Below, piece after piece: positions 1 to 26,130 of a DNA stretch of 64,000 nucleotides. Made by a program: the position numbers and the translations under genes. The notes beneath the pieces were generated by a model that worked only from the letters and a program-made list of their open reading frames with translations, had not been told where the DNA came from and did not search any database. The stretch spans positions 859-64,858 of the forward strand of contig JBJXEM010000007.1 of the NCBI GenBank assembly GCA_046154225.1, read 5' to 3'. Every line of letters begins with the position of its first letter. Within the stretch, counting starts at the first letter, position 1. Source of the stretch: Rickettsiales bacterium (GTDB lineage: Bacteria > Pseudomonadota > Alphaproteobacteria > Rickettsiales > UBA3002).

Positions 1-168
1 AAAACCCTTGCAGAAAAATTCATGCTGCCAAGCTTCCGGCCATTCGCCACCCACCAACGCTTCCACAAACCCTTTCGAGGTTTGCTTAAACACATCGTAG
101 GCCCAGCCCAGATCTTTGTCCGGGTCGGCGGGTCTGAGTTCAAATTCTGTGTCTTTGATCTTCATCAT
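1..168 (-). CDS. hypothetical protein, N-terminal fragment (gene continues beyond left edge)
   Basis: Not in ORF track (too short). The minus-strand frame is open from the ATG at 168 to base 1 (MMKIKDTEFELRPADPDKDLGWAYDVFKQTSKGFVEALVGGEWPEAWQHEFF...). Its ATG overlaps the TGA of the upstream 1314-aa gene (TGATG, 166-170), suggesting a fifth coupled gene. Confidence 0.4.
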   Translation of the reverse strand, partial: MMKIKDTEFELRPADPDKDLGWAYDVFKQTSKGFVEALVGGEWPEAWQHEFFCKGF

Positions 169-3100
169 CAGGTTCCCCTTTCCGAAGTAGCTCTCTGGCC
201 GCGCGTAATTTTAGGATTACCTTTCACAAGTGTGGCATCCGGCCCTTCGTGTGCGGGGGCGGGTGGGCTCACATCCACCACATCGCCCAATAGGCGCACC
301 ATGGGGCGTGGTGCGGGGTTGTGCCATACCATCTTGTCTGCCGGGTCGAAGTCGATGAAGTGAATCAAGTTGTCGCCGAGATTGATGTCGCGCGCGTGGT
401 CGACGAACATGGCCGTGAGTTCTTTTTGCATGCTTGCCAGGTTAGCGTAGCCATAATGCACGGCGTACTCTTCGGTGAAGCTTTCTTTGTTCATCAAAGA
501 TTTCAGTTTTTTGAGGCTTTTGAGCCCCGCTTTCGCGGCATCCTCATCCGTCATCTCATCACGCGCGAGCGCCGCACGTGCTGCATCAATCGAATCCAAG
601 CCAACGGCCACGGCAGCCTTTATCTGCTCGCGCCCCAGCTTAACACGTTCGCGCGCTTCTTTCAGCGTCATAGTCTGCACGTTGGTGATGGTGGCGGGCA
701 CTTCCCACCCACTCTCCTCTAGCCCCGGTTTTTTACTGCCCTTGACCATGCCTTCCAGGCGTGTTGCGCCAATGCTTGGCACATAGCCCTCGTGCTTGAT
801 CGCAAGGCCGGTGAGGCGCGTGTCGCGATAGCCAAGTTCGGGGCTTACCGTGGCCATGAAGTTGTCCCAGGTGCGCACTTTAATGGGTTCCAGTGATTCG
901 TTGATTTTCGCGGGAACAGGCTCGAAAGCTTCCGCCGCGATAGCGACCAACTCCTCGGGCGCGGGCGGCTCCATGCCGCTGTCGCGAAACCGCACGGCGG
1001 CGGCTTTGTATTCCTCATGGAAATACGCGCTCGGCGAAATTTCGCGTGTGGTGAGAATGGCGGGTTTTGCTGCCAGATACGTACGCCCGGTTTGTTCGCC
1101 GCGCAGAAACAGGAAAGTCCCCGGCTCCATTTCGGCTAATGCTTTGCGCTGCGCGGGGCTTGGGTTGCACATGATGAAATTGTGCGACACTTCGTGATGA
1201 CCGAGCGGCCGCTCGAGCATTTTATCGGGCACGTCGAGGGTCAGCACCTTTGCACCGGCGGGAATTTCATACCGCGCATATTCGATAGGGAACCCTTGTT
1301 TGAGCGGTTCATAGCCCATCAGGCGCTGTTTCTCGTCAGTCAGGGGATGCGCGGCCATCATTTCGGCACATAATTTTATGTATTCGTTCACGATCGGTGC
1401 GGCGACATCGCTATTGCGCATAAAAATGTCCCAGTGGCCCCAATGCTCCAGATCTTCGGGACGGACATCGCCTTTGAGAAGGTTGTCAAGAATGCGGGCA
1501 CAATCTTTCAGGCCTTTTTCACCAGTCATCCAGCGCGAGTGATCGATGTCTTCGTGAGGGGCGCGGTTCCATGCGAGGGCGATTCTACCTTCAAAAATGC
1601 GTTCCCATCTCTCCCACTCACGCAGTTTGTCTTCGCGCCCTTGGTCGGCCCAGTATTGCTTTACCCACTCCACACGCCCGGCATCGCGGAACATGCATGC
1701 CATTAATTCAGCGCTATAATTCAGCTGTTCTTTGTGAATGCTGTATTCACCTGTGCGGAATTTACTACTGCGGTCGCGCTCGCTCATGGCGTTGAGCCTT
1801 GGAAATGCGACGGGGTGCCCATAACGATCATGCACGGTAAAATCGGTACTGAAATCGCCGAATTCGCTCATAAACTCGGCACGCAATTTCCACAGATACT
1901 CAACCGCATTTGCCGTTAGCTCCGCGCATTCCTCGTGCGTCATCACGTGGGGAATTCCCGGGTTGCCACCTGCCGGCTTCACATCCCATTTCGGCGGGGT
2001 GAACGAGGCATCCGGCTTAGGCAGTTTGAAATTTTTACCCGGTAGGGATTTATGCAGCGCCTTTTCAACTTCGCCCATACGCTCGATGAACGCTTCAAGC
2101 GTGTCGTTGCGCACTTCAATTTCGACCGTTTGCGGTTTCACCGCGCGACGCAGCACCGCGTCGATACTGCGGTCAGTCGTCAATTCTTTTTCCCAAAGTA
2201 CATGCACGTCACGCGCGACCATCTCTTTTTTACCGTCCACCTCGAATTCATATCGTTTGGCATTGGCGAGGTTCGTGAATAAATGCTCTTCCGGGCGTGG
2301 ATTGCGGATGGTGCGGAAATCGGGCAATGGCGGCGTTACAAGGCAGTGCGCCTTCATTAGCTTGTCGCGCAACTCGGGGTGCGAAAGCAGGAAGCGGCGA
2401 TTGGTCTCATTCAACGCAAGGTCGCCGCCAGCACCGCGCAGAATGGCAATTTCCTTCTCAACCACCGGCGGGTTTTTGCGCATCTTGATGATTTCGCACA
2501 GCGCATCAGGGTTGCCCGCCTGCATTTTTAACATGACGGCGAGTTCGTCGGCCGTCATGTCGAGGAGTTTTTTCTCGGTGCCGTTCACGTTGTAGGTGTA
2601 ATCTTCGAGCTTGCTGTTGAGGTCGGTGCGCATCAAAAGCGCTTGCCGCCGCTCTTTCATGTCTACGTTGACGCCGACACACACGCCCAGGCGCAGATGC
2701 GCGCCGTTGGGGTGAATGTAGCGCGCAAAGCCGCGAATGGGGTGAGGCTCGAAGCCCTTGCCGCCGGTCAGGAACAGTATCAGCTTATCCAGATCGGCGT
2801 TTTCCTCGAACCGACGCACCACATCCGGCACGCGTTTACGCATGAAAGCCCGAAGCGAAATGCACGCCAACACATCGTATTCCGGGTCCTGATGCGCGAG
2901 GCGACGGTCGTATTTCGAGCCGTCCGGCATACGCACCCCTTCGTCGACGCCGCGTTCGGGGTTGGCATCGCGCGTGTTAGCCTCCATCAGGCTCGACAGC
3001 GTGTAGGATTTATAGGGCTTGCCGGTGTTGCCATCGATTTTGGTGCCCAGTTTGAAGCTGTTCTCACCGCCAACATCCACGAGCGCGATGAGCTTGGCCA

Positions 3101-4109
3101 GATGCAACGTGTCGACCCGGAACCGCTTAAATTTTTTGGTGTGGGTGAGGTGATTTTCATCGCTCATGTAGCGGTGCAGGAACGACCGTAAAATACTGTC
3201 GTCAAAGCGGCTGATATTATGGCCTTCGGTGACGGCTGGCGACTCTACTTTTTTCCAGCGTTTTTTGCTCGGTTCGGGGTCGTAATAAATGTCGCCTTTA
3301 TTCAGTTGGTCGGCGTCGGCCAGCCGATAGAGTGGCTGCGGATACCCCTCGCCCATGGCCTCCTTCATCGCTTCGGCGAAAGCGCTCATTCCACCATGAA
3401 ACGCGTATAATTTCTTCGTGATCACGTCGCGATTGAACGCGTGCGTTTCGCTATTGAAAATCTCGTGCGCATCCGTTGTGAGTACGCGGGCGATTGCCTG
3501 CGCCAGTGCTGACTTATCCTCGATGCGCTCCATCACGTCGCAATAATGATCGACGCGGTCGGGGTAACGGTACGACAGGTATTTACCGCCCTGATGGATG
3601 CGGATTTCCGTCTTCCGTTTGCCGTCGCGGCTGGCGATGCTGTAGACGCGCACTTCTTCCTCTTTGCCGGAGGGGCCGGTGATCATCATCGCTGAATCTT
3701 CCAACTGGTCCCACAACGCCCGGTAAGGATTGCGGAAATACAGCATCATTTTTGCCGCCGCGAGGTGCGGCTTCACTCGGCCTTTTTCGCTGTATAAATC
3801 CTTCGGTGGGCTTTGCGTCACGATGGCGGCTTGTGGGGCCACCACCACATCTTTGGGCACCTGAATGTCCATTTTCAGCGTGTCGATAATCCGCCCGTCG
3901 AGCGTGATGATTTTACCGCAGAACATGGTGGGGGCCGCGAACATGGGGTCGAGCCCGGTGGTTTCAAAGTCGTAGCTCAGCGACAGCAGCTTACCGCTCT
4001 CGATTAAATGCTCGACATTGTCGTAGTCGAACTGCTCGCGCAGCCACCAGTCTTGCGCCGGATTGCCTAGCTCGGTGGTTGGGGTTGGGGCAACTGCTTT
4101 ACGGGCCAT
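168..4109 (-). CDS. giant exonuclease I (SbcB)-like DEDDh 3'-5' exonuclease with internal insertion and ~700-aa C-terminal extension of unknown function
   Basis: 1314-aa ORF. The track start is GTG 4112; ATG 4109 lies 6 nt after GGGAGA. Exonuclease motifs: SYDFETTGLD (Exo I), EGHNISRFDDSILR (Exo II), AHQDPEYDVLA (Exo III, H-x4-D). The following stretch (HPIRGFARYIHPNG, IIKMRKNPPVV, NRRFLLSHPELRDKL) parallels the SH3-like and C-terminal domains of E. coli ExoI as I recall them. Confidence 0.75.
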   Translation of the reverse strand: MARKAVAPTPTTELGNPAQDWWLREQFDYDNVEHLIESGKLLSLSYDFETTGLDPMFAAPTMFCGKIITLDGRIIDTLKMDIQVPKDVVVAPQAAIVTQSPPKDLYSEKGRVKPHLAAAKMMLYFRNPYRALWDQLEDSAMMITGPSGKEEEVRVYSIASRDGKRKTEIRIHQGGKYLSYRYPDRVDHYCDVMERIEDKSALAQAIARVLTTDAHEIFNSETHAFNRDVITKKLYAFHGGMSAFAEAMKEAMGEGYPQPLYRLADADQLNKGDIYYDPEPSKKRWKKVESPAVTEGHNISRFDDSILRSFLHRYMSDENHLTHTKKFKRFRVDTLHLAKLIALVDVGGENSFKLGTKIDGNTGKPYKSYTLSSLMEANTRDANPERGVDEGVRMPDGSKYDRRLAHQDPEYDVLACISLRAFMRKRVPDVVRRFEENADLDKLILFLTGGKGFEPHPIRGFARYIHPNGAHLRLGVCVGVNVDMKERRQALLMRTDLNSKLEDYTYNVNGTEKKLLDMTADELAVMLKMQAGNPDALCEIIKMRKNPPVVEKEIAILRGAGGDLALNETNRRFLLSHPELRDKLMKAHCLVTPPLPDFRTIRNPRPEEHLFTNLANAKRYEFEVDGKKEMVARDVHVLWEKELTTDRSIDAVLRRAVKPQTVEIEVRNDTLEAFIERMGEVEKALHKSLPGKNFKLPKPDASFTPPKWDVKPAGGNPGIPHVMTHEECAELTANAVEYLWKLRAEFMSEFGDFSTDFTVHDRYGHPVAFPRLNAMSERDRSSKFRTGEYSIHKEQLNYSAELMACMFRDAGRVEWVKQYWADQGREDKLREWERWERIFEGRIALAWNRAPHEDIDHSRWMTGEKGLKDCARILDNLLKGDVRPEDLEHWGHWDIFMRNSDVAAPIVNEYIKLCAEMMAAHPLTDEKQRLMGYEPLKQGFPIEYARYEIPAGAKVLTLDVPDKMLERPLGHHEVSHNFIMCNPSPAQRKALAEMEPGTFLFLRGEQTGRTYLAAKPAILTTREISPSAYFHEEYKAAAVRFRDSGMEPPAPEELVAIAAEAFEPVPAKINESLEPIKVRTWDNFMATVSPELGYRDTRLTGLAIKHEGYVPSIGATRLEGMVKGSKKPGLEESGWEVPATITNVQTMTLKEARERVKLGREQIKAAVAVGLDSIDAARAALARDEMTDEDAAKAGLKSLKKLKSLMNKESFTEEYAVHYGYANLASMQKELTAMFVDHARDINLGDNLIHFIDFDPADKMVWHNPAPRPMVRLLGDVVDVSPPAPAHEGPDATLVKGNPKITRGQRATSERGT

Positions 4110-4112
4110 CAC

Positions 4113-7100
4113 TTATCTCCCTGCGTATGCAGCAGAATTATTTTGAAACCGCCCTAAAAGCCGCCCACGATTTTCCTGCCCAGGCAGGTCAGCGCCGCGG
4201 TCTGGCCGCTCGCCAGGGGGCGCCATGCGGTTTTCCGGCGCGGGTTCGGGCGGGCTTGCTTTGCGCTCGGCGTGAGCTCTCGCCACGTATTCGGCATCCA
4301 TGGAAGCAAGCGCACTCTCATACATCCCGCTTTTTTGTGCGGTGGCAAAAAGCCCCTTACCCACAAACCCACCCTCGGCATCCATCCGGCGGACGCGGGT
4401 GGCGATCTGGTAGCCCCCGTGATACTCTCCTTCTTTAATGATACGCTGAATGCGGATAAGCGACGCCATGCTGCGGCCAAGCGAAGTGATTTGCGTTTCT
4501 GCCGCGCTCGCGCCGGCGGCGATACCGATTTTCTCGAAATTCGGGACAATGCGCCCCATGTAGCGATGGCCGCCAGCGGCGCATATCTCGCCCACTCGCT
4601 CGCCTGCTTCTAGCGACGACGTATGCTGCGACGCCGTCATATCGGCGCGAACCATGTTCACCCATGCTTCGCAGTCTTTCGCGTAACCATGGCCGCCCGC
4701 GTGAATGGGCATGCCGCTCACCACCAATGTTTTGCCGTCCTCACTGCGTACGCAGTTTTTGCCCAGACTTTTGAGCCTTTTTTCGATTTTCTCGCGGCGG
4801 TCTAAATCGTGCGGGGCGAAATGGATGATAAACCCGTCGTGAATCGCCTGCACCACGCTGTAGCCTTGCGCCACCAGATCATCGCACATTTTGGCTTGTT
4901 TTTTGTCATTTCCCGGAATGGCACTTTGTGAAATGACGACGAAATTATTCTCGGGGTTCACCGGGCGCGCCGTGTGGCTTTTATCCGCGTTGCCGTTTAA
5001 CACCGGGTGGCGGCCTTGCGACATGGCCGTCAATGCCGCATCCACTTCGACATTGGTGCCCTGCGTGCCGGTGAGCAGCACAAGCCTGCGGCTGTCGGCG
5101 CCATGCATGCCGTCGCCATCGTCCATGCTCATGATGCGGCGTGCCGTTTTGCTGCCACGGCCCACGCGGATGGCGCCGAGCGTCAATTCATCCTCGGTTA
5201 ACGAGCCGAGCGTAGTTTTCCGGCCGAATTTATTTTTAAGAACCTGTTCATATTCCCATCGCTTTTCGTAACGGGTGGCGGGGCTTTTAATGTCTTTGAG
5301 TTTCTCAAAAAACTCCAGACGTGCTTCATGCCGCTCGATTTTATTTTCAATCGTACGGCGCGTTCTTTCGTTCGTGGTTGTTTCGAGTTTCGCTTTGTGA
5401 CCCTCGATTTTTCTGCGCAGGCGGTACTCGAAATACCAATCGAGATAGGGCAGAATATTATTACGAATTTCCGGCTCAATACGTAGATCGTTCACGCCAC
5501 CCACGTTCATGGTCGTCGCGGTTTTCTGCAGGTTGGTGCCGAATTCCGTCACGTCGCGATGCACCCGCGTGCCCACCCGCAGCGCGGTTTCGTAGCGGTT
5601 GTCGTTGGTCGAAATCATGGCAAGGAACATGCCCTTGTCCTTGAACCAGTCGGATATCTCGCAGAGATTATCCTCGACTTCAGGTTCCGTCGGCCCCCAG
5701 CCGTTTTTCATGATGGAGGTGATGTCCATGTCGAAATAAGTCGGCCCGCGCTTGGCGATTTCAGGGTCGAAGCGGTCGGCCACTTCCTGCGCCAGCTGAT
5801 TCTTTTTTGCCAAACGCTGCATTTCATCGAGGAAACGCTGGTTGCTCTCGGTGAAAAACTTCTTATCCAGATGGTCGGCGTCAACTTCGCGCCCCACGTA
5901 ATCGTCGGCATTGTGGCGACCAAACCGCGCATCGCCGTGGTTGAGGTAAGAGCCCAGCCATTTGCCCTCATAATGCCCATGCACGAAAAACGGTGTGGTG
6001 CGTGCTGAGTGCGGCGTGGCGTTGCGCGCATAATTCACCGAAAGCCGGGTTTTACCTTGCTTGTCTTTGATGTGCAGCCAGCCCTGCCCATTCAGCATCG
6101 CGAAGGTGGGCAGGTCGCGCTCGCTAATGCCCGGATAGCTTGACAACTTATCACGAATCGAGCGGTAGACCTCCGGTGTGCAATGCACCGTTTTACCACG
6201 CAGCAGGCCGCGCTCAATATAGATGAACAAGCCATCCGTGTGGTCGAGATGGCGGTGGGTGATGAGGATATCGTCGCAGTATTTCAGGTGCTCCACCACA
6301 TCCGGCGCGGCCGAGAGCGTTGCTTCATCTTTGGGGCTAAGATGCAGCCCCAAATCGATAATGACGCCTACCCGGTCGAGCTTGCCGTTTTTATCGAGCC
6401 CTTCGTGGCACACCACTTTCGAGTTGCCGCCAATCGCCTCACCCAACCCGTCAACGATGGGTTCCATGTTGTTGCCGCCAACGGAAATCATGCTCAGCCT
6501 CCCGCCCTGAGCGAGCGGTGGAGGCGGCGTATAGGTATACACCAGATCATCAAGGTCGTGCTCGACGAGATGGTCGATGGCGGCCGGATATTTACCAAAC
6601 CGCGCGTCGTGCATCATGCGGTTGGTGGCGCCGAGCCCGCGCATCTGCCGCAAATGGCTATCATCCTTGAAATTTTCGTCGCACAGATTCATTTCTGCGA
6701 GCGTGGCAGTCCGGTTTTCCGGTACCACGGATGCATCGTCGCTACTTTTCCACGCAACATCCGTCAGGCCTGGCAGGGCACTGGCCGGTTTGGTTTCAAA
6801 ATCCCAACTGGGCGAATATTGACTGCGTACGCTCGGATTTCGACCTTTAGTAGCGTGGATGAGCGTCAGGTAATCTTCGCCCGTTTCAGGATGGGTTCCG
6901 TGCAGGGGGGTCACTGGCTGCAACTTATTGTCGTGATCGATCGTATTGGCATCGAGCCCCATCAGCGCGCCCGCCACCCATTCCGGCACCGTGATTGTCT
7001 GATCGCGCGGCATCTCCTGGCCCGGCATAGCATCGAACACTAAGCCATCCTGCGTGGCCGACTGGCCGGTGACCGTCAGGCTGTGGCCGGAAGCATCTTT

Positions 7101-7622
7101 CAGCGCATACTTATCGAGGATTTTTGCCACGTTTGGCAGCTTTCCAGCGCGCATTTCAAGGTTCACGTCCTTCACCGCCGCCATCAAGCGCGACAGATTT
7201 GCCATCACCGCGTCCCTGTGATCGGGATCGTCGTCATCGCCCAGCAAGTGGCCGTCATTGCCTGATTGATACATCGGATTGCCAAGCACATACGCCGCAC
7301 GCGGGACAACGCTTGGAACTTTTGTCTGAGTGCCGTCAGGTTTGTCGACAGTGATTTCCTCCTGCGCCAACTCGATATCGAATAGTTCGAGAGATTGCTG
7401 GCGGCCTGCCGCATTCATGTACCAGTAGAGGGTTTTGAGGTGTGTCACGCCCCCGCTTTTATCGAGCACGGCTTTGGTTTGAATGGCGACGGCGCCACCG
7501 GTGCGCGGATCCACGCCGCCTTCGGCCAACCCTACAGCATGTCCCTCGCCGTTCGCCAGTGCCGGGTGGCTGAGGCCGACCGCGTTCAGAATCGCACGTT
7601 TCGGCCAGCCCCAGTAACTCAT
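4113..7622 (-). CDS. giant metallo-beta-lactamase/beta-CASP (RNase J-like) nuclease with ~400-aa unknown N-terminal region
   Basis: ORF 4113-7655. The likely start is ATG 7622, with AAGGAG 7 nt upstream and an ATGA overlap with the upstream stop. Motifs: ILITHRHLDHTDG (HxHxDH), VLLTGTQGT, SQSAIPGND, and IHAGGHGYAKDCEAWVNMVRADMTASQHT (resembles the RNase J segment hvSGHa...PvHGE). Confidence 0.75.
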   Translation of the reverse strand: MSYWGWPKRAILNAVGLSHPALANGEGHAVGLAEGGVDPRTGGAVAIQTKAVLDKSGGVTHLKTLYWYMNAAGRQQSLELFDIELAQEEITVDKPDGTQTKVPSVVPRAAYVLGNPMYQSGNDGHLLGDDDDPDHRDAVMANLSRLMAAVKDVNLEMRAGKLPNVAKILDKYALKDASGHSLTVTGQSATQDGLVFDAMPGQEMPRDQTITVPEWVAGALMGLDANTIDHDNKLQPVTPLHGTHPETGEDYLTLIHATKGRNPSVRSQYSPSWDFETKPASALPGLTDVAWKSSDDASVVPENRTATLAEMNLCDENFKDDSHLRQMRGLGATNRMMHDARFGKYPAAIDHLVEHDLDDLVYTYTPPPPLAQGGRLSMISVGGNNMEPIVDGLGEAIGGNSKVVCHEGLDKNGKLDRVGVIIDLGLHLSPKDEATLSAAPDVVEHLKYCDDILITHRHLDHTDGLFIYIERGLLRGKTVHCTPEVYRSIRDKLSSYPGISERDLPTFAMLNGQGWLHIKDKQGKTRLSVNYARNATPHSARTTPFFVHGHYEGKWLGSYLNHGDARFGRHNADDYVGREVDADHLDKKFFTESNQRFLDEMQRLAKKNQLAQEVADRFDPEIAKRGPTYFDMDITSIMKNGWGPTEPEVEDNLCEISDWFKDKGMFLAMISTNDNRYETALRVGTRVHRDVTEFGTNLQKTATTMNVGGVNDLRIEPEIRNNILPYLDWYFEYRLRRKIEGHKAKLETTTNERTRRTIENKIERHEARLEFFEKLKDIKSPATRYEKRWEYEQVLKNKFGRKTTLGSLTEDELTLGAIRVGRGSKTARRIMSMDDGDGMHGADSRRLVLLTGTQGTNVEVDAALTAMSQGRHPVLNGNADKSHTARPVNPENNFVVISQSAIPGNDKKQAKMCDDLVAQGYSVVQAIHDGFIIHFAPHDLDRREKIEKRLKSLGKNCVRSEDGKTLVVSGMPIHAGGHGYAKDCEAWVNMVRADMTASQHTSSLEAGERVGEICAAGGHRYMGRIVPNFEKIGIAAGASAAETQITSLGRSMASLIRIQRIIKEGEYHGGYQIATRVRRMDAEGGFVGKGLFATAQKSGMYESALASMDAEYVARAHAERKASPPEPAPENRMAPPGERPDRGADLPGQENRGRLLGRFQNNSAAYAGR

Positions 7623-8080
7623 GCCGAGGCTCCTTTTACCAGCGCCTGCGTCCATAAAACCTGTCCGCGTTTGGACAGTAGCGGCATGATGAGCGCATCC
7701 TTTGGTCGCGCGCTAGCCTTCAACGCGGTGATAATGGTGCCAAGCGTTGCCAGCAGCCGCGGTAGATCGGCCAAATGCGCGCCTGCGTCGCAGGTGAACG
7801 ATGTCACCGCGCACAGCCCGTCGGGCCCGGCGGGCGAGAGCGTCAGTGATAGCACGTCGAAAAACCGGCGCTTGAAACCGGGGCCCTGGCGGTGCATTTC
7901 GAAGCTGAGGATGACGCCCCCGCGCGCCGTTTCCTCGAGCCCGATCGACAGCACCCGGTAATCTCCTGTCGTGGGATTATAATCGGCCAGTTCCGCGCGC
8001 TCGCCCACCACGAGGCAAAGGCTGTGCGAAAATGCCGCCGGGTCGATGCGTAGCGAACCCATGCCAGGTGTTGCGCTCAT
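7619..8080 (-). CDS. hypothetical protein (153 aa), operon-internal
   Basis: ORF with ATGA overlaps at both ends (8077-8080 and 7619-7622). No motif recognised. Confidence 0.6.
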   Translation of the reverse strand: MSATPGMGSLRIDPAAFSHSLCLVVGERAELADYNPTTGDYRVLSIGLEETARGGVILSFEMHRQGPGFKRRFFDVLSLTLSPAGPDGLCAVTSFTCDAGAHLADLPRLLATLGTIITALKASARPKDALIMPLLSKRGQVLWTQALVKGASA

Positions 8081-10410
8081 CGCCCGGCTCCATCGCGTCT
8101 GATTTCAACGTCATCGCGCGCGGGGGACTGTTTAATGAGCTTCTGCTCACCTCGCAATGTGGTCTGCGCCGAAAGATAGGCATCCATCAGCTTATTTTGT
8201 ACCGCTTTGACGGAAGCGCGGTCGCCATCGTCACTCGTGTCGGGCTTTGCATACAAACGATCGTGCGGAATCCATAAGGCGGCCTTGGTGGTGAGCAGCC
8301 TTCTTGCCTCCTCCACCACGGTTTCTTCGCCGGATTCGCGTGGGGCCGAGGTTGTTTGGCCGCGGTCGTAACTGACGAGTTCGGGCGGCGCAAAGTTTGT
8401 GTTGATCGGGTCGCGGGTTTGCTCGCCAGCGTTGCGTGCCGACGGGTCGACCCCCATGTCATGCAGCGCAACCAACCGCGCCAGCGCCACTGCCTGCTCG
8501 GTCGCCACCACATTCGAAAGTGCCGCACGGCGCACTTCCTGCGTTAAAAGCTGGATGTCGGTGAGCAGTGTTTCAGGTGTTTTCAGGTCGGCGGCGCTGA
8601 ACACATCCAACGTCGATTGCGCGCCTGTCGGGCGTTCGATCATGCCGGCCTGAATCAGCCTTGCCCGCACACGCAACTGCACCAGGTCGTTCGAACGTTG
8701 CCACCCCTCCTGAAACACCGCCTTGTCCACATTGCGGTCGAGGTATTTCATCTGCAGCGCGAGGCGCAGTTGCGGGCTAGTTTTGCCTGCCCCAGGTTCG
8801 GCGATAAATCCTTCGGGCCGCATGCGTTCAATGGTGCTGGCGATACGCAGAAAGCTTGGGGTGCTGACCACAATTTTATGTGGGTTTTTTGCTTTTATCT
8901 CTGCCTGTAACGTTTCCGCTTCGCGCAAGTTGGCCGAAATGATTTCTGCCGTTTCGCGGCCCAGTGCCCCGGCGAGCTCATCCATGTTGTCGACGCCCAT
9001 CGCGTCGGCCCGTTCGGCACCGTATTTGCCGCGTTTGAGATCGGCGAACACCATCGTCGCCATCGGGTGGCCGGTGGGGTAAAGCCCGGTTTCGCTAGCG
9101 CCGATGGCAAACGGCAGTGCCAGCCGCTCCCACTTTTGAAGCTTGCCATACACATCATCTTCGAACATTTTCGACTGTGCGCGCTTTTCGAAGAACCGCT
9201 CGTAACTGTCGAACACGCGCTGGGGCCGCGCCTCGATATCGGCGTGTTTTGCACGCAGCGAATCCGAAGGCAACACCGAGAGAATGCTGTAGGCGTTGGC
9301 CGAAATCCTGTCGGCCACTTGTTTACATGCATCGAGCAGTTTAGCCGATAATTTACGAGGCTTTGCCTGAGCCGCGATGCGATATCCTTCCGGCAAATCA
9401 TCCAATCGCATCAACGACGCGCATTGGTTTTTCAGAATCGGCAGCAGCTCGGCCTTCAGCGCATCCATCGCGGCGAGCTCCTCGGGCGAGCGGTTCTGTA
9501 ACGTCGGGTGCAACTTGCGCCCTTCGGCCGGAATTTTTCCGGCACGAATCTCATCATCGAGCGTAAAAACCTGTGCCAACGCCGTAGCAGCTTCGCGCGG
9601 CTCGAACCCTTTGCCGAGCTGGTATTTCAGCATTTCAGCCAATTTTTCGGTGCGCCATAGCAACGACACGGGTTTGCCTTCTAGGTCGCGCACGTCCATG
9701 TCGGCATCCGGGCGCGATTCCAGCTGACCTGCCTGAATCAACACCCCGCGCATCATTTCCCAAATCGAGTTGCGCGAGAAATTCCAGTCGCCGTCGAGCA
9801 CCATCATCTTGCAGCGATCGATGACGGGGTACCAAAAGGCCATAAAATCTTCTTCTTCATAGCGCTGGCCTTTGGCGAATCCGCGGTCGCTCAGGGCACG
9901 CACTGCCCCCTCGCGCACTACGGGTGCCACCACCATTTTGTCGGCATACATGCGGCTGACGATGGCCGCGCGACGGAGGTTATCGTCTTTGTTCTGCTCG
10001 ATCGCATGCTTCACCAGCGTGCCGGCCAAACGCTCATCGGATTTATAGGTGGATTCGTCCCACTCACGATTGCCCGTGGCGCGCGAGCGATTTTTTCTAT
10101 CCAGCAGCTCGTGCATGCGCAGGCCGGAAGAAATGCCGCACGGTACATAAATCATATCGGCGTCTTGTGCGATTTCATGAAACGCGACCGCCTCAACCGT
10201 GACGCAGGCACGGGTAATTTTGGATTTAGGGTTGATCAGGCGGTTGAAATAGCTGCGCGAGCCGTCGTTACTGACGCCAAAACCGTCGAACCGGTCGGGC
10301 TTGATGCTGCCCTTGAAATACCCGCCAATCCACTCGAATAATTGCTTTTTGGGTGCGGCTTGCGGCGCATTCGTATCGTCTTGCGGTGCATCCAGTTCCG
10401 TGTTGGCCAT
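8077..10410 (-). CDS. large hypothetical protein; N-terminal region with DUF4406 / nucleoside 2-deoxyribosyltransferase-like signature
   Basis: ORF 8077-10488. I prefer the start at ATG 10410 (MANTELD..., GAGGGTG upstream). MIYVPCGISSG ... EEDFMAFWYPVIDRCKMMVLDGDWNFSRNSIWEM fits the IYIAGxxxG ... DW-x2-S-x5-E pattern of DUF4406/NDT-like proteins. This pattern is recalled from memory and needs a profile search. Confidence 0.6.
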   Translation of the reverse strand: MANTELDAPQDDTNAPQAAPKKQLFEWIGGYFKGSIKPDRFDGFGVSNDGSRSYFNRLINPKSKITRACVTVEAVAFHEIAQDADMIYVPCGISSGLRMHELLDRKNRSRATGNREWDESTYKSDERLAGTLVKHAIEQNKDDNLRRAAIVSRMYADKMVVAPVVREGAVRALSDRGFAKGQRYEEEDFMAFWYPVIDRCKMMVLDGDWNFSRNSIWEMMRGVLIQAGQLESRPDADMDVRDLEGKPVSLLWRTEKLAEMLKYQLGKGFEPREAATALAQVFTLDDEIRAGKIPAEGRKLHPTLQNRSPEELAAMDALKAELLPILKNQCASLMRLDDLPEGYRIAAQAKPRKLSAKLLDACKQVADRISANAYSILSVLPSDSLRAKHADIEARPQRVFDSYERFFEKRAQSKMFEDDVYGKLQKWERLALPFAIGASETGLYPTGHPMATMVFADLKRGKYGAERADAMGVDNMDELAGALGRETAEIISANLREAETLQAEIKAKNPHKIVVSTPSFLRIASTIERMRPEGFIAEPGAGKTSPQLRLALQMKYLDRNVDKAVFQEGWQRSNDLVQLRVRARLIQAGMIERPTGAQSTLDVFSAADLKTPETLLTDIQLLTQEVRRAALSNVVATEQAVALARLVALHDMGVDPSARNAGEQTRDPINTNFAPPELVSYDRGQTTSAPRESGEETVVEEARRLLTTKAALWIPHDRLYAKPDTSDDGDRASVKAVQNKLMDAYLSAQTTLRGEQKLIKQSPARDDVEIRRDGAGR

Positions 10411-10578
10411 TTCACCCTCGCAGCACTTCGTTGACACCGAAGGAGTGGCAAAGATTTGTGACAGTCGCGTGACGGTTGCCATGCTCAAACCTCATGGCAG
10501 CCATACCCGTTTTGCAACTATTGACTTTTCCCTGCATGGCTGCGACGCAAGGCTCGAATTTTACAAAAGGAGAAGCGA

Positions 10579-11595
10579 ATGCGTTATCCACAAGCACAAA
10601 AAATAGGCACGATGGGCGACGAAATTGATCTGCCCGCGTTCGATGCAATGATTGACCGTGCACGCGAAAAATTTCGCGCTTTGGCGCAGCGCAATCCGGC
10701 ACTGTTTGGTGGCAGCAACAACCCGCGCCTTGCACTCACCATTAACGAGGACGCTTCGCGCGGCACCATCGCCGTGCCTCAGGGCATTGACGTCAGCTCA
10801 ACGCAAGGGCTCATGCAAGCTGTCGACTTAACGGAGCTGAAACAGACCGCAATAGCCGAGGACATAAAAACCATCGCCGCCCATGCGCATACCAAAAAAG
10901 CCGCCACCGTGTGCGTGCGCCCTGAATTTGTGGCACTGGTGAAAAGCGTCACCGACGACAACCCTCCGCCCATCGCCGTGGTGGGCTTCCCTTTCGTGCC
11001 CGACCCCACCAGTGCTACACAGGCGGTGCTCGAACAAACCCGCTCTGCTATTGAAGCAGGCGCACGCGAAATCGACATGGTGCTCGCCATGAACTTCAAA
11101 GACGGCACGCCCGATTATGCCGCGCATTACGATTACATTCGCCAGATCGTGGAGGAAGCCAGCAAAAGCGGCGTGCAAGTCAAAGTGATTCTGGAAACCG
11201 CCTACCTCAGCGACGAGCAGAAAGTAGAAGCCAGCATGATCGCGAAAATGGCCGGTGCCACGTTCGTCAAAACCTCGACCGGCTTCGCCCGCGACGAGCT
11301 GATGCATCCGGACGTACCACTCACGCAAAAAGGCGCCACCGTGCACGATGTGGCACTCATGCGCCGCACCGTGGGCGATACCACCTGCGACGATGCCGGA
11401 AAGCCAACGCCCATGGGCGTAAAAGCTTCGGGCGGCGTGCGTACCCGCGAACAAGCCATCGCCCTGTATGAGGCAGGCGCGAGCCGAATCGGGGCCAGCG
11501 GTGGCATCGACCTGCGCACCCGGCCCGAAGCACGGGCAGACAGTCGCAATGCCCAGCAATCTGACGGCCCGCAGAGCGGCCTGAGTGCGTATTGA
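10579..11595 (+). CDS. deoC: deoxyribose-phosphate aldolase with ~95-aa N-terminal extension
   Basis: AAGGAG lies 6 nt upstream of the ATG. Motifs: VCVRPEFV, VVGFPFV, REIDMVLAMN, VKVILETAYL (catalytic Lys), FVKTSTGFA (Schiff-base Lys), GVKASGGVRT. Confidence 0.85.
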   Translation: MRYPQAQKIGTMGDEIDLPAFDAMIDRAREKFRALAQRNPALFGGSNNPRLALTINEDASRGTIAVPQGIDVSSTQGLMQAVDLTELKQTAIAEDIKTIAAHAHTKKAATVCVRPEFVALVKSVTDDNPPPIAVVGFPFVPDPTSATQAVLEQTRSAIEAGAREIDMVLAMNFKDGTPDYAAHYDYIRQIVEEASKSGVQVKVILETAYLSDEQKVEASMIAKMAGATFVKTSTGFARDELMHPDVPLTQKGATVHDVALMRRTVGDTTCDDAGKPTPMGVKASGGVRTREQAIALYEAGASRIGASGGIDLRTRPEARADSRNAQQSDGPQSGLSAY

Positions 11596-11736: not shown

Positions 11737-14700
11737 GTGGCCAAAGTAAAAACAGATAAAATTGAGACTAAAATCGCCACATTAAAGTCATTCTTTAATG
11801 CGGGAGGGTTGCAAATCGTTGCCGAGCCCAAACGCTGGTCCTATCCCAGCCCTTATGCCCCCGATCCCAATCCCAAAGACAATTACTACGCCATTTACGG
11901 TCCGCCCCTCACGCTCGATGCGTTGCAAAACAGCGGCCTTCTTTCCGAATCGGAGCTGAGGCCGCGCGTCGATAGCAAAACCGAAAGCAAGGCCTATCTG
12001 GATAGTGATCTCGCGCTGGCATTTTTGAAAAAATACCCGGAACTTAAAACCGAAACACCAAACCGCCTATTCGCCCTGAGGAATGACGCGCAGGAGCCGA
12101 CCCTCGCCTGTTTCGACACAGGCAGGCCCATCGAAGGCGACACGCACGCCGATGGCACCAAACCCGACAAGCTATCGTACCTGCTTCTCAGTGCCAGCGA
12201 TGCACGGCGTTTCGAACCAGCACTTAAGCGTCTAACGGTCGATGGTCCACGACAGTATATTACCGCCATCCATCACAAGCGCGAAGTGGGCGAATTTATG
12301 ATTCTGCCAATCCGTCACTCGATGGTGGAAAGCATCCGGCGGGCCAATCCCGGATTGATTGATCTGCAACCTGACGAGTTCGACATAGCGCAGGCGCAAG
12401 GCGCCGATATGGCAACAGCCATGCTGCATATCATAGCGAACCTGAAAGGTGACACACGGTTTGAGAAAGAACCGAAAACAAAAACCATTCACCCCAATGC
12501 ACGAGCCGCGCGCGAGCCTCAGCCAGAATTTGAGCCGCTCACCCTCGCCGATTTTCTCGGCAAACTAAAGCCGCACATTCAAGGCTTTCGGCGTATCGAG
12601 CAATTTAACGGCAGCTTTGATACAACCATGAGCGTCAATGGCAGCGCAAAATTGGCCGAACTGATAAAACGCCAAAGCACGCAAGCTAACGATCTTTCAT
12701 TCACGCCAATCCTGCAACATTCCAAGACCGTGGCTTATAAAATCAATCAGGCCACCTACGATGCCCTAAACCCATTGATCAATGGCACCACGATTACCGA
12801 GCATCTCGGCCAACAGAAATTCAATCCAAACTGGACGCAGCCTACCAACATAAAATACCTGAAGCCAAAACGCGATATCCCGCCTGCGCCAACACTAAAA
12901 AGCATTAAAACGCCAGCAGAAGAATACGATCTGGTCTCAGAATCCGTGTATTCGCTGCGCCTTGCATGTAACAGCGACGGCTCCCTTGAGCAGCATTGGT
13001 TGATCGCCGAGCTGGACAGCCCGCGCCGCGGTTTGGTGCTCGCGGAAAAAATGAGCATCGCGCCGGCGAAAGTTTCGGTGCTGACAGCCGAAAATGAAAA
13101 ACCCACCTTAATCCGCATCCCCATCAGCGCCGCTATTGCCGAAAGCCTGCGTGATGACGATGCCAAGCGGGAAACAGATAAGTCACGCGCCAAGGAAATG
13201 CGCATCGATTCGCAAGAAGCCCCCTACGATTCTCTGGAAGCACTAGACGCGGAGCAGCGCAGCCGCGCTGGCGTGACGGAGTCGCTACCCAAAAGCGCAA
13301 AAACACCTGAACCCACCGCTGAACCTGAAGCTGCCACCCACTCCGAAGAAACCATTCGCGCCGACGCCGAGAAATTGCTTTTCCTGAACCAGCCTGCCTT
13401 CGCGGCGCAGCGCGCAATTCACGTCGCGTCCTATGTCTGGACGGTGATTCATGAGAACTACTCCGACATCCCGGGTAAGCATGCGGATTTACAAACGCAG
13501 CTACGCAACGGGCGCGCGTTTCTGGGCATAAAAATACCTAAAACCGACGCGCCTGAATTCGAAAGTGCGCTGAAACATGTTGGTTTTCACGGACCCGTCG
13601 ATCGGCGCCTGACGTTAGTAGGCTCGGCAGGTCAGGACCAGGTTTATAAGCTGTCGCTTGGCAAGCTCGATGCGCTCGCCTTTGAAAAATACCTCACGCC
13701 TGAACATGCGCTGGAAAATGGCTTGGGAAGCAAGCTGGGCTTTTCTTCACAAACCACGTTTCAAAATACCCTCAAATCGCATTTCGGGGTTACTGAAAAA
13801 ACAAAAGAAGAACCGACTGACACCTACGCCGAAGCCTGGTCGCAGCTCGCCAAACTCGCACAAAAAGGCGATCTGAAATACGCGCAGGTGCGCTATGATG
13901 AAGAAACGATTGCCAAGGCGCTTCACGATTTGCAGGCCGACCTCGATCACCTGAAAGAGGTGGCGGCTCGCGCCGAAACACAAACTACACCCGACAACGA
14001 AAAAACGGAAAACCCATTGGCCGCCCTCAGCCCCGCCATTATGCGTCAGGGGGCCAAACTTTACACACTAAAACGCCATCACGAAGGTCGCCTGAATGCG
14101 CTTCGGATTCAAATTGAAACCATGGAAAAAGAAATCAGCACGTTTCGTGATTGGGTCGAGGCGCAACCGCGTACAATCAACGGCGATATTCTGGTCACGA
14201 ATCTGGTACTCCCCGATCCGGGAAGCAATATCATCAACCATCTGAACACGCTGAGAGCGCAGCTTTATAAGCCACCCGGAGCCAAGGAAGAAAAGAAAGA
14301 GAAAGGGGATAAAAAAGAAAAAAACCCCGGCGTTCAGCTTTTCCCCGATCCATTGGAGCATGTGCAAAAAGCCATGGCCGATAAAATAATCATGGCGGGG
14401 AATCGTGAGGTGTTGCAACCCCGCGAGGTGATACTCGTACCCGTTATCCCGCAATTTTTTGATGTGTTACGTATCCACGCGCCCGAAATTGAAGTCGCCG
14501 CACTCGCACCCAAACCGCTTAGCCGTGCCCGACTCCTGCAGTCGTTACGCAGCATGTTTTATGTCGAACCACCTGCGAAAGTAGAGATAGAAAAAGACCG
14601 TTCGTATGATGCAGTGGCCTCGGTGCGTGAAACCCTGCCACGGCGAGATGAATTACTTAATTGCCGCGATATCCTGCGCTACGCCACTCTGGTCGAGGGG

Positions 14701-15627
14701 CACGCGCATGAAAATCTGGCCGCCAAGACCGTAACCCGCAGGCGCGACGATGGCCGCGTGTTCGCGCGCAAGGAAGTGCTGGGCGAGCGCATCGGCGAAC
14801 AGCATGCCGCCATGTTCCACATCCGCGACGCGCGCGACTGGAAACGCGCAGAAATTTTATTAAAAAGACTCACGGCAGCCGATTGGCTCAAAAATCGTGA
14901 GCGCTATGGCGGGCTTATTGAAGCGCCTTTGCCCGACGATCTGCAAGCTGCGATCAATCAGCGCGATCACGCCACGCGGCAGATTGAATGCATTGAAAAC
15001 GATGACCTTCTTTTCCATCTTCAGCAGGTGGCAATAGGTAAAGGCACGGAATTCTCTTTGCCGCATGCACGCGTAGCAGCAAGGGCGCTGTGCGAAGCGG
15101 TCGAGTACGATGAAGATGCGGAAAAAATCCGAGATTTACTACAAACGGATGGCGACATTGATGACACGAAACTCGCCTCGGCCCACGGAAAGCTGGAAGC
15201 AATTTTCAATGAACTCCGCACGCGCCGTAACGAAGCGCAGGAGCGCGTGATTCAGCTCGGCATACACTATAAAATCCCCGAAACCGATGCACGTATGGCA
15301 CCGGAAATTATCGCCGATGAGGCGCCGCTCGCTTACCTGCCCGGTGAGGAACATGGCGTTGCGCTCTCGCAACTGGCCGAATTAATGCCCAAACTACCGG
15401 GCGATGAATCTGTCAGTTTCGTGGTTTACCTCGGGCTCGACGATAAGCGTGAGCCCGACCGGCAGATGATGGCTGCCATGCAGTCTTTTCGCCCGGCGCC
15501 GGATTCTGCAGGTGTACGCTCAGCCAAAGCCATCGAAGAAAAATATGGCCGCACCAGCGGTAACACCCTCGATGAGTGGTTTGCCGAGCGTGGCAAACAT
15601 TTCGGAGTCAGCGGCGAACTCGCATAG
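11737..15627 (+). CDS. hypothetical protein (1296 aa), no recognisable domain
   Basis: Long uninterrupted ORF with a GTG start (gtg gcc aaa gta). It has a K/E-rich low-complexity patch (PGAKEEKKEKGDKKEKNPG). No signal peptide or TM segment is seen. Confidence 0.65.
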   Translation: MAKVKTDKIETKIATLKSFFNAGGLQIVAEPKRWSYPSPYAPDPNPKDNYYAIYGPPLTLDALQNSGLLSESELRPRVDSKTESKAYLDSDLALAFLKKYPELKTETPNRLFALRNDAQEPTLACFDTGRPIEGDTHADGTKPDKLSYLLLSASDARRFEPALKRLTVDGPRQYITAIHHKREVGEFMILPIRHSMVESIRRANPGLIDLQPDEFDIAQAQGADMATAMLHIIANLKGDTRFEKEPKTKTIHPNARAAREPQPEFEPLTLADFLGKLKPHIQGFRRIEQFNGSFDTTMSVNGSAKLAELIKRQSTQANDLSFTPILQHSKTVAYKINQATYDALNPLINGTTITEHLGQQKFNPNWTQPTNIKYLKPKRDIPPAPTLKSIKTPAEEYDLVSESVYSLRLACNSDGSLEQHWLIAELDSPRRGLVLAEKMSIAPAKVSVLTAENEKPTLIRIPISAAIAESLRDDDAKRETDKSRAKEMRIDSQEAPYDSLEALDAEQRSRAGVTESLPKSAKTPEPTAEPEAATHSEETIRADAEKLLFLNQPAFAAQRAIHVASYVWTVIHENYSDIPGKHADLQTQLRNGRAFLGIKIPKTDAPEFESALKHVGFHGPVDRRLTLVGSAGQDQVYKLSLGKLDALAFEKYLTPEHALENGLGSKLGFSSQTTFQNTLKSHFGVTEKTKEEPTDTYAEAWSQLAKLAQKGDLKYAQVRYDEETIAKALHDLQADLDHLKEVAARAETQTTPDNEKTENPLAALSPAIMRQGAKLYTLKRHHEGRLNALRIQIETMEKEISTFRDWVEAQPRTINGDILVTNLVLPDPGSNIINHLNTLRAQLYKPPGAKEEKKEKGDKKEKNPGVQLFPDPLEHVQKAMADKIIMAGNREVLQPREVILVPVIPQFFDVLRIHAPEIEVAALAPKPLSRARLLQSLRSMFYVEPPAKVEIEKDRSYDAVASVRETLPRRDELLNCRDILRYATLVEGHAHENLAAKTVTRRRDDGRVFARKEVLGERIGEQHAAMFHIRDARDWKRAEILLKRLTAADWLKNRERYGGLIEAPLPDDLQAAINQRDHATRQIECIENDDLLFHLQQVAIGKGTEFSLPHARVAARALCEAVEYDEDAEKIRDLLQTDGDIDDTKLASAHGKLEAIFNELRTRRNEAQERVIQLGIHYKIPETDARMAPEIIADEAPLAYLPGEEHGVALSQLAELMPKLPGDESVSFVVYLGLDDKREPDRQMMAAMQSFRPAPDSAGVRSAKAIEEKYGRTSGNTLDEWFAERGKHFGVSGELA

Positions 15628-22187: not shown

Positions 22188-22214
22188 GACGCTCCTCGCG
22201 GATTCATGTATGTA
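22186..22214 (+). promoter_or_regulatory. sigma-70-like promoter of pilin-like gene 1
   Basis: TTGACG (22186-22191), a 17-nt spacer, TATGTA (22209-22214), with a T-run upstream. The predicted TSS coincides with ATG 22221, so the mRNA would be leaderless or near-leaderless. Confidence 0.5.
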
Positions 22215-22220
22215 AATTAT

Positions 22221-25433: not shown

Positions 25434-26130
25434 AACTGACTACCTGAAACTGAGGATCCTGGGTGGTGGTGATGGGGCGGCCCGCCTCATCCGTACCCGG
25501 GGTGACAACCATGGGAGTGTAGTAATATTGCAGCCGTGTCGTGCCCCGTGCCGGTATGGTGCTAACCGCGAGATTGATAAGCTCGGAACGCCAACTGATA
25601 GTGGCCGTACGCGGCTCGACCTTGTCGTCGATAACAACACTGTCGATGAAAAGCAATCGCTGGCCGTTATAGCCCAATTGCGCCGCCAGGCTTTGTGGGT
25701 TGGTGCTGCTGTACTGCTTGGCGAAATAGGCCGCCGTGGGTTGGTCGGAATGGGCAACAATGAACGCGTAATTGCTAGTGTAATGGCTGTATTCATAGCT
25801 CTCACGCATTTTCACATAAAGCGCGATCAGGTTTCGCTCCATCGCAGGCTCGATGGGTGCACCGGTAGGCTTGATACGCTGCACGTGGGGCACCACGTCG
25901 TCGGGGCGGTCCGAGCGAATGACAATGCCGGGCCGCGAGGTAAGGGGCAGTAGGCTGGTCATGGCAATGATGCCAAACAGGGCCACGAAACTGGCAAGCA
26001 TGGCCACCAACAGAAAAAAGCTGCGTTCCGAGATCGGGCCGATGTATAACGCAGCGTACCACGCGCGCGATTCCTTGTAGTAGGCCCCGCTACGGATCAT
26101 TTCGGCTAGCTGCTTTGCATCGTCGCTCAT
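25411..26130 (-). CDS. virB8: VirB8-like type IV secretion protein homologue
   Basis: Likely start at ATG 26130 (MSDDAKQ...). Features: YYKESRAWYAALY, a single TM (FFLLVAMLASFVALFGIIAMTSLL), then a periplasmic domain with LIALYVKMRESYEY. It overlaps the virB9-like start by 23 nt. Confidence 0.6.
   Translation of the reverse strand: MSDDAKQLAEMIRSGAYYKESRAWYAALYIGPISERSFFLLVAMLASFVALFGIIAMTSLLPLTSRPGIVIRSDRPDDVVPHVQRIKPTGAPIEPAMERNLIALYVKMRESYEYSHYTSNYAFIVAHSDQPTAAYFAKQYSSTNPQSLAAQLGYNGQRLLFIDSVVIDDKVEPRTATISWRSELINLAVSTIPARGTTRLQYYYTPMVVTPGTDEAGRPITTTQDPQFQVVSYDIIPAR

Follow-up and report, generated by a model that had tools for sequence, protein, structure and literature searches.

An Operon of RNase J-Like, ExoI-Like and Predicted DUF4406-Type Large Proteins in Uncultured Alphaproteobacteria, Sometimes Located Next to deoC

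The DNA considered here, referred to as the window, is a stretch of 64,000 nucleotides from a Rickettsiales bacterium (contig JBJXEM010000007.1 of GenBank assembly GCA_046154225.1). Its first 11,595 nucleotides contain a deoC gene and, divergent from it, four genes named A, B, C and D that form one tightly packed operon. The protein encoded by C is predicted to have an RNase J-type metallo-beta-lactamase (MBL)/beta-CASP fold, the N-terminus of D resembles exonuclease I (ExoI/SbcB), and A appears to consist of two modules related to DUF4406 and to the nucleoside 2-deoxyribosyltransferases (NDT). A, C and D occur together in about 16 distinct loci, and their predicted catalytic residues are all kept in the most divergent members. 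We tentatively propose, giving the idea somewhat less than an even chance, that the operon encodes a translationally coupled complex that would degrade nucleic acid from both ends and cleave the resulting (deoxy)nucleoside monophosphates, (d)NMPs, to sugar-5-phosphate and base, with the sugar passing to DeoC.

Organization of the Operon

The operon and its immediate surroundings consist of the following features (aa, amino acids).

8077-10410, minus strand: gene A, 777 aa, first gene of the operon; a large helical protein with predicted tandem DUF4406/NDT-type Rossmannoid modules
7619-8080, minus strand: gene B, 153 aa; a small accessory protein, translationally coupled on both sides
4113-7622, minus strand: gene C, 1169 aa; a predicted RNase J-like MBL/beta-CASP nuclease
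168-4109, minus strand: gene D, 1313 aa; a predicted ExoI/SbcB-like DEDDh 3'-5' exonuclease domain plus about 860 additional aa
1-168, minus strand: 5' end of a fifth open reading frame (ORF), 56 codons visible with the rest cut off by the window edge; start-stop coupled to D
10411-10578, no strand: A-deoC intergenic region, 168 bp between divergent genes, with the presumed promoters
10579-11595, plus strand: deoC, 338 aa; deoxyribose-phosphate aldolase (DERA), divergent from A

An earlier note on this DNA, made from the sequence alone, had claimed that these genes follow one another for more than 10 kb with no intergenic space, and the ORFs and overlaps are exactly as it described them. The A stop and the B start have the ATGA at 8077-8080 in common, and the B stop and the C start have the ATGA at 7619-7622 in common, the latter with AAAGGAG upstream. 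At 4107-4115 the TAA stop of C is followed directly by GTGATG, and in the TGATG at 166-170 the D stop overlaps the next ATG. A purine-rich, Shine-Dalgarno-like run precedes every start in the A-D operon. The NCBI and Logan gene calls agree on the lengths of A/B/C/D (777/153/1169/1313 aa), and the A, C and D proteins are 100% identical to those of NCBI loci ACKVOE_01760, ACKVOE_01750 and ACKVOE_01745, respectively. The same gene order and the same junctions, either 4-nt overlaps or 3-nt gaps, are found again in independent genomes; because the order and the 4-nt overlaps recur, the A-B-C-D arrangement is not due to chance.

The earlier note had counted five genes in the operon. This holds for A, B, C and D but not for the ORF at 1-168, which has no counterpart in any related locus; the position after D is occupied there either by a small gene named S (described below) or by unrelated genes. 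The unit therefore has four genes. An Rfam scan of the A-deoC intergenic region at E<=1 found no riboswitch or other RNA, and a promoter and terminator scan was uninformative because the counts were near shuffle expectation for the sigma-70 consensus. GC content is flat over the region, with no compositional anomaly.

The Conserved Triad

A check of gene neighborhoods found the A-C-D triad in about 16 distinct loci (counts that take in related genomes), with protein identities down to about 20%. Thus, the genes are syntenic outside of the window, and the lack of synteny that the earlier note had named as grounds for giving up its idea is not borne out. All of the carriers are uncultured Alphaproteobacteria, either Rickettsiales-like metagenome-assembled genomes (MAGs) or Micavibrio species. 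For each of the three proteins, the homologs found are only a few dozen metagenomic or MAG proteins, and every one of these is annotated as "hypothetical". The order is A-(B)-C-D in every locus that is long enough to judge.

The loci, designated by L numbers, cover a wide range of divergence. Identities are 49-65% for L002/7, L003, L004, L005/13, L006, L011/12 and L016-L018, 30-36% for L008, and 23-28% for L009/L010 (a Micavibrio sp. and an Alphaproteobacteria MAG). In the divergent L021 and L022, A is detectable only at E 1e-51 and 1e-14, respectively, and some of the triad loci have A matches with E values of only 1e-12 to 1e-14. Even the most divergent members retain the active sites of A, C and D, from which we argue that all three activities are needed. 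The conserved unit is A-C-D, with B and S as accessories.

Gene A, a Predicted Tandem DUF4406/NDT-Type Protein

Three features were located in A.

9535-10224, minus strand: N-terminal DUF4406-like module, aa 63-292; hhalign of the A3 profile against the single-domain relatives (A6), probability 99.8%, E 1.3e-28
9757-9777, minus strand: motif S212-R213-N-S-I-W-E218 (SRxxxxE), with a putative phosphate-binding Ser and catalytic Glu
8437-8970, minus strand: second, degenerate DUF4406-like module, aa ~481-658; an internal repeat in which the residue aligned with E218 is L579

Direct searches of Pfam, NCBIfam, PADLOC and PHROGs with A gave no match, and the full A profile found nothing in PDB. The relationship to DUF4406 is a transitive one. 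A profile search of 1.84 billion representatives returned 98 relatives of A, mostly 700-940 aa in length, and the weakest of these are single-domain proteins of about 280-320 aa. Three of these single-domain proteins, found with the A3 profile (P0160, P0163 and P0171), match DUF4406 with 23.7, 18.6 and 23.4 bits, and so two of the three are above the gathering score of 22. An internal duplication (aa 126-293 against aa 481-658, hhalign probability 95.4%, E 1.7e-8) agrees with a secondary structure that contains two Rossmannoid beta-alpha-beta modules. The DUF4406/NDT-like signature that the earlier note had recognized in the first gene is therefore real by transitive searches, but a fold search of PDB does not recover an NDT fold. 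The AlphaFold2 model of A has a pLDDT (predicted local distance difference test) of 84 and a pTM (predicted template-modeling score) of 0.85. Against BFVD, the whole-chain model gave only weak fold matches, namely an NDT-like protein (E 0.53, probability 0.85, target-normalized template-modeling score (TMt) 0.59), a DUF4406 protein (E 0.6) and a cytidine monophosphate (CMP) hydrolase.

The SRxxxxE motif is invariant in 31 of 31 aligned homologs and in the divergent loci L008, L010, L021-L023, L025 and L026 (the family alignments are shallow, with 21-31 sequences). The site in rat DNPH1 consists of Ser87, which binds the 5'-phosphate, Glu93, which holds the ribose, and residues of the partner subunit that complete it (PMC3834327). 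The spacing from S212 to E218 in A equals that from Ser87 to Glu93, and we predict that the N-terminal module of A is active and binds nucleoside 5'-monophosphates. The second module has a Leu at the Glu position, and therefore A looks like a fused active/inactive pseudo-dimer. The tandem modules would in this respect resemble the obligate dimer of NDT and DNPH1.

DNPH1/Rcl, the nucleoside 2-deoxyribosyltransferases and DUF4406 belong to the same clan. What A has in common with them is the predicted Rossmannoid core, a Gly/Ser-rich loop after beta-1 (YVPCGISSG), the Ser-x5-Glu of DNPH1 and homology to DUF4406-positive single-domain proteins. It differs from them in that its module sits in a 777-aa helical protein, its second module is without the Glu, and it has neither a direct Pfam match nor a significant match to a solved structure. 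No characterized function for DUF4406 was found in the searchable literature.

Gene C, an RNase J-Like Nuclease

Sequence matches of C to known families are weak. Pfam finds Lactamase_B_2 (E 5.7e-5) and RNase_J beta-CASP (E 1.5e-4) at 23.2 and 22 bits, respectively, compared with a gathering score of 27, and the NCBIfam RNase J1 model scores 23.2 bits compared with a cut-off of 820. A family profile built from 21 homologs has a colinear match to Deinococcus radiodurans RNase J in three segments. The AlphaFold2 model is of moderate confidence (pLDDT 67), and a Foldseek search of PDB with this model returned RNase J for all of the top 25 matches (E 4.4e-13 to 2e-7, TMt 0.56-0.72). The RNase J-like fold spans aa ~375-1060, and one feature within it can be located precisely.

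6240-6257, minus strand: metal-binding motif 2 of C, H456-R-H-L-D-H461 (HxHxDH); invariant in the family and in the divergent loci

H538, D564, H974-x3-H978 and H1000 are also invariant and kept in the divergent loci. On the strength of the model and these residues, C is assigned an RNase J-type MBL/beta-CASP fold with intact catalytic residues. Compared with RNase J structures such as 7wnu, 3bk1 and 5a0t, it appears to have the same fold and all of the metal-ligand and beta-CASP histidines, including IHxxGH. The differences are an identity of only 12-17%, scores that are far under the family cut-offs, long helical insertions in the core and, at the N-terminus, some 400 aa that are novel and rich in beta structure. 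Neither PDB nor Pfam has a relative of aa 1-400, profile searches included. The tail of C is disordered.

The fold of C brings up another explanation for the operon, namely that its products are a machine particular to this lineage with a housekeeping role in RNA turnover or DNA repair, along the lines of a degradosome or the archaeal RecJ3/4-aRNase J complex, with A as a scaffold or nucleotide-pool sanitizer and the adjacency of deoC as mere residual synteny. RNase J is the closest fold of C, and the C ortholog of L010 has a weak match to the RMMBL RNA-specificity domain. In addition, RNase T and oligoribonuclease are themselves DEDDh enzymes, one D homolog matches PF00929, and the chromosomal context and vertical-looking descent of the genes would suit such a machine. 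The RecJ3/RecJ4-aRNase J complex of Haloferax volcanii, which is reported to act in DNA-damage survival, likewise joins an RNase J-type beta-CASP nuclease to exonucleases whose polarity is opposite (PMC10470531), and DNPH1 itself is termed a nucleotide-pool sanitizer (PMC10603095). However, the Haloferax complex has a DHH-type RecJ rather than a DEDDh enzyme and no NDT-like component, and it is archaeal and not encoded by such an operon. RNA decay and repair are universal, yet the genes described here are limited to a few uncultured lineages, and no RNA helicase, polynucleotide phosphorylase (PNPase) or enolase partner is present in the operon at the visible loci. Moreover, the adjacency of deoC has been kept in two orientations and on separate branches while other synteny was lost (see below). 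We consider this explanation unlikely.

Gene D, an ExoI-Like Exonuclease

The predicted exonuclease domain of D covers aa ~40-440. The window D protein has no Pfam match, and the D family members that were scanned gave no informative match, with the exception of the homolog with PF00929 mentioned above. The NCBIfam ExoI model NF008746 matches at E 0.0019 (16.9 bits compared with an equivalog cut-off of 260), and the SbcB-like component model of the DRT system in PADLOC gives a partial match at E 1.5e-5. Direct matches to these ExoI/SbcB-type models are confined to aa ~45-130. However, the D family profile can be aligned with ExoI 4rg8 over three segments, which are colinear and match the motifs Exo I, II and III. 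D47 and E49 of Exo I (D-x-E) are invariant in 21 homologs plus L008, L010 and L021, and N298, D303/D304, H406 and D412, which are aligned with 4rg8 segments 138-162 and 219-249, are invariant as well. These alignments indicate that the N-terminus of D is an ExoI-like DEDDh exonuclease with intact catalytic residues.

The likeness to ExoI of E. coli and relatives (4rg8) consists of an N-terminus of about 400 aa with YDFETTG, GHNxxRFDD and AHxxxxYD in ExoI order, and ExoI models are the best profile matches of D. On the other hand, ExoI has about 475 aa and D has 1313, the difference including an insert of about 85 aa and a C-terminal region of about 860 aa, and the gene for D forms a fixed triad with those for A and C. 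The insert, located inside the exonuclease domain (aa ~184-268), is lineage-specific: the window protein has it, and so do P0002, P0003 and P0005, but not the other four of the seven further homologs displayed.

The two catalytic cores that had been proposed from the sequence alone, ExoI-like and RNase J-like, are both borne out with their catalytic residues intact, although they are weak at the sequence level. The accompanying claim that the remaining 400-700 aa match nothing holds for D aa 450-1313 (about 860 aa), as well as for C aa 1-400, in searches of PDB and Pfam that included profiles. Comparisons of A, C and D with each other by hhalign found no common domains (probability <1%).

Genomic Context

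The genes that flank the cassette are ordinary chromosomal genes that differ from locus to locus; they include flhA, lytB/panC, the rib operon, an acyl-CoA dehydrogenase and cytochrome bd. Only L002 has flanks from mobile elements, namely IS1595, integrase fragments and OLD-type TOPRIM fragments. The possibility that the cassette is a horizontally transferred island was rejected because GC content is flat and the flanks are housekeeping genes. No near-identical DNA was found in plasmids. Searches by tblastn with A against plasmids and phages and with D against plasmids (50,697 phage and 72,556 plasmid records) found no homolog, a D profile scan of IMG/VR found none, and PHROGs gave weak ExoI-like or MBL matches at most.

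These observations bear on a second alternative, already raised in general terms in the earlier note, that the genes form a nuclease-based anti-phage or anti-plasmid system in which A senses or processes a nucleotide signal or a modified nucleotide and C and D are effectors against invader or self nucleic acid. The general appearance of the operon, i.e., several translationally coupled genes, giant proteins and two nucleases, would suit this idea, and so would its rare, patchy-looking distribution (98 A clusters among 1.84 billion representatives), the flanks of L002, helicase genes upstream at L017 and L022 and the match of D to the DRT component. NDT/SLOG-type domains are reportedly nucleotide sensors in conflict systems. 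However, A, B and C have no match in PADLOC-DB 2.0 at E<=1 and no defense system was matched, phage, plasmid and IMG/VR sequences lack homologs as noted above, most loci have housekeeping surroundings, and GC content is unremarkable. Vertical descent is suggested by the broad agreement between the trees of A and C and by a divergence of the cassette that is close to that of the neighboring DeoC (57-65% identity), and a defense function offers no obvious reason for the recurrent link to deoC. A defense function is thus improbable.

Two other observations were made next to the cassette. In L021, genes for phosphoribosyl pyrophosphate (PRPP) synthetase-like, nicotinate phosphoribosyltransferase (NAPRTase)-like and NAD-synthase proteins precede the A-C-D triad on the same strand (2787-9595); this prs/NAPRTase/NAD-synthase context is a single occurrence. 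'Metallophos' genes beside the cassette in L002 and L013 were considered as a recurrent partner and rejected, because they do not form a common cluster at 1e-8.

The Link to deoC

The earlier note had pointed out a deoC gene divergent from the first gene of the operon, and the gene is indeed that of a true DERA (TIGR00126, 166.4 bits compared with a cut-off of 117.3, E 5.7e-49), with 168 bp between the two starts. Its N-terminus is extended by about 65 aa that are conserved, as is the Tyr at the C-terminus. A deoC gene is located beside the cassette in four of the approximately 16 loci. It is divergent in the window and L004 and co-directional in L016 and L017/L019; in L017 it is 120 bp before A. 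The cassette-adjacent orthologs are 57-65% identical and have the same N-terminal extension of about 65 aa. As the locus counts include related genomes, the four adjacencies are not independent events.

Neighbor-joining trees of A and C place the four deoC-bearing loci on different branches of the core clade, and deoC is the only flank that the window, L004 and L016/L017 have in common. The separate branches, the two orientations and the fact that every other flank is different provide moderate evidence that deoC is functionally linked to the cassette and that the adjacency was either retained or re-created while other synteny decayed. The earlier suggestion that deoC is a member of the system thus finds support in four loci, but the gene is missing from three quarters of them and is therefore better considered an accessory than a core part. 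The deoA, deoB and deoD genes were not found next to any related locus or among the annotated ORFs of the window. The deoC frame of L004 (4459-6138, minus strand) is open for about 234 codons further upstream (MLNAHALNPDF...). A fusion at the N-terminus or a wrongly placed start may be the reason, and Pfam sees only the DeoC part.

A Proposed Route from Nucleic Acid to Sugar Phosphate

With regard to function, we infer complex formation, the substrate, the N-glycosidase activity of A and the coupling to DeoC from the properties described above. The A-B-C-D operon would give rise to a cytoplasmic multi-enzyme assembly that degrades nucleic acid past the nucleotide stage. D would act as a 3'-5' exonuclease and C as a 5'-3' exo/endonuclease, and together they would convert single-stranded nucleic acid to 5'-mononucleotides from both ends. 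The active module of A would then bind the (d)NMPs and cleave the N-glycosidic bond, which would release the free base and (deoxy)ribose-5-phosphate. Where the sugar is deoxyribose-5-phosphate, DeoC would split it into glyceraldehyde-3-phosphate and acetaldehyde. Scaffold, substrate-handling or regulatory functions would fall to B and S and to the large novel regions in the other three proteins.

This proposal has the same overall logic as the deo regulon and the 'DNA as nutrient' route (nucleases to nucleosides, then DeoA/DeoD, DeoB and DeoC), in that the sugar of nucleic acid is channeled into glycolysis and the DeoC end point is located beside nucleases here too. In E. coli, the use of DNA as a nutrient reportedly requires single-stranded DNA exonucleases, among them ExoI, and predators of the Bdellovibrio type feed on the nucleic acid of their prey. 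The cassette differs from the deo regulon in that it has no phosphorylase or phosphopentomutase, the proposed entry to deoxyribose-5-phosphate is direct N-glycosidic cleavage of deoxynucleoside monophosphates, and deoC is linked in only about one quarter of the loci. The DNA-to-central-metabolism route put forward in the earlier note is partly supported by the nuclease folds, the signature in A and the recurrent synteny, but not in the form that had a fifth gene and deoC as a core part.

Several observations weigh against the proposed route. The whole-chain model of A has no NDT or DNPH1 match in PDB, where the best E value is 0.026, and DUF4406 (PF14359) is unmatched by A and 31 homologs at E<=5 and by 10 divergent members at E<=1. 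The RNase J fold of C points to RNA rather than DNA. An adjacent deoC is missing in about 12 of the approximately 16 loci, including all of the divergent ones, and there is no other deo or nucleoside-salvage gene among the annotated ORFs of the window. Finally, a simple catabolic route would not need enzymes as large as 800-1300 aa, nor the roughly 2000 unmatched aa that they contain, and no uptake system or signal peptide accounts for the source of the substrate.

Protein Tails, virB Genes and the Effector Alternative

The window also contains genes related to a type IV secretion system (T4SS), as the earlier note had reported. A virB9 gene (CagX, E 1.5e-64) and a virB8 gene (E 1.3e-15) are located at 24636-26268 on the minus strand beside hisI, with no other T4SS genes nearby. 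The genes are present as claimed, at 24.6-26.3 kb rather than 24.6-26.1 kb, but they are an isolated pair, which resembles the scattered rvh T4SS genes of Rickettsiales.

A third alternative is that A, C and D are effectors, exported by a T4SS or another route, that degrade host or prey nucleic acid for an obligately host-associated or predatory bacterium. The carriers, Rickettsiales-like and Micavibrio MAGs, and the virB8 and virB9 genes in the window would be compatible with this, and although the proteins are acidic as a whole, their C-terminal 30 aa are disordered and have a net charge of +1 to +3. The Arg-rich C-termini noticed earlier are thus positive to a modest degree, but they are conserved short motifs and not an established secretion signal. 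The tails have the family motifs ...G-A-x-R in A, ...LPGxExRHRLF...SAAF in C and ...PDPxxVxGxPxIxRG in D; each is specific to its family and conserved, and they resemble docking motifs more than they do a general signal based on charge. Furthermore, the proteins have no signal peptides, and the virB8/virB9 pair is 14 kb from the cassette and is unlinked to it in any other locus. Translational coupling suggests assembly inside the producer cell, and an enzyme that acts on mononucleotides and a link to DeoC also fit the interior of that cell better. For these reasons, export of the proteins as effectors is very unlikely.

Accessory and Neighboring Genes

B homologs are located between A and C in 10 loci, L008 has a divergent one, and the most divergent triads lack the gene. 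In some loci B is duplicated to about 318 aa, and it has no recognizable domain in Pfam. In L023 (3303-3662), A is followed in the B position by a 119-aa protein with an Fe-S assembly domain (PF04384, IscX-like); this protein was rejected as a B homolog (E 0.069).

Two other small proteins recur near the cassette. S is a conserved protein of about 85 aa encoded directly after D in five loci, with the motif RPCWFLLKA...IDLxxYGEVxxSGWGH and no Pfam match. In the window, S was not seen, and the ORF after D is another one. X120 is a protein of about 110-115 aa with no domain match in Pfam. Their locations are as follows.

L003 13768-14040: S
L004 16142-16417: S
L006 12447-12731: S
L011 17176-17424: S
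L017 ~19800-20005: S
L016 3718-4050, minus strand: X120, upstream of deoC
L017 8348-8659, minus strand: X120, upstream of deoC
L006 12736-13026, minus strand: X120, downstream of S

The rest of the window has a few features that deserve mention.

11737-15627, plus strand: 1296-aa ORF between deoC and recQ; no Pfam, NCBIfam or PADLOC match and a marginal PHROGs match
22206-23036 and 23130-23939, plus strand: two paralogs with near-identical prepilin-type N-termini
26234-32847, plus strand: 1654-aa and 553-aa ORFs directly beside virB8, with signal-peptide-like N-termini and no Pfam domain
41329-41382, plus strand, and 41400-41482, minus strand: two matches to the whalefall-1 RNA motif (Rfam RF01762), 46.9 and 43.2 bits, gathering score 37

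The 1296-aa ORF was considered as a member of the system and rejected because it has no homolog in any related locus. The first prepilin-type paralog (22206-23036) was scored for the N-methylation motif PF07963 and has 20.5 bits, just under the gathering score of 21.2; a homolog of these paralogs is also present near the cassette in L006 (13815-14624). The whalefall-1 matches are inverted relative to each other, with 18 nt between them, and are located in or next to an ORF at 40584-41729 on the minus strand.

Concluding Remarks

A, C and D are each below the curated membership thresholds of the DUF4406, RNase J and ExoI families, respectively. The A-C-D combination, the apparent fused pseudo-dimer of A and the large unmatched regions have no description in PADLOC, in Pfam/NCBIfam names or in the searchable literature, in agreement with the earlier statement that no operon of such composition had been described. 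We consider it possible but doubtful that the cassette represents either a new machine of predatory or host-associated Alphaproteobacteria, which would couple bidirectional exonucleolysis to N-glycosidic cleavage, or a new class of immune system. In the first case, it would provide a direct route from nucleic acid to (deoxy)ribose-5-phosphate and base that bypasses the nucleoside phosphorylases and feeds DeoC.

If the proposed mechanism is true, A would provide the first function for the DUF4406 branch of the NDT superfamily and would be a bacterial counterpart of DNPH1 that serves in bulk catabolism and not in pool sanitization. It would also show how uncultured, cell-dependent Micavibrio- and Rickettsiales-like bacteria turn acquired nucleic acid into carbon, energy and bases. 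Should the cassette serve in defense instead, its combination of RNase J-like, ExoI-like and NDT-like parts would make it a defense system of a new type. The three large, well-conserved families are suited for structural work, with A predicted confidently without a solved relative, and the triad, with its nine predicted catalytic residues, lends itself well to expression and assay. With either reading, new biology would be found in A and in the approximately 2000 aa of C and D that match nothing.

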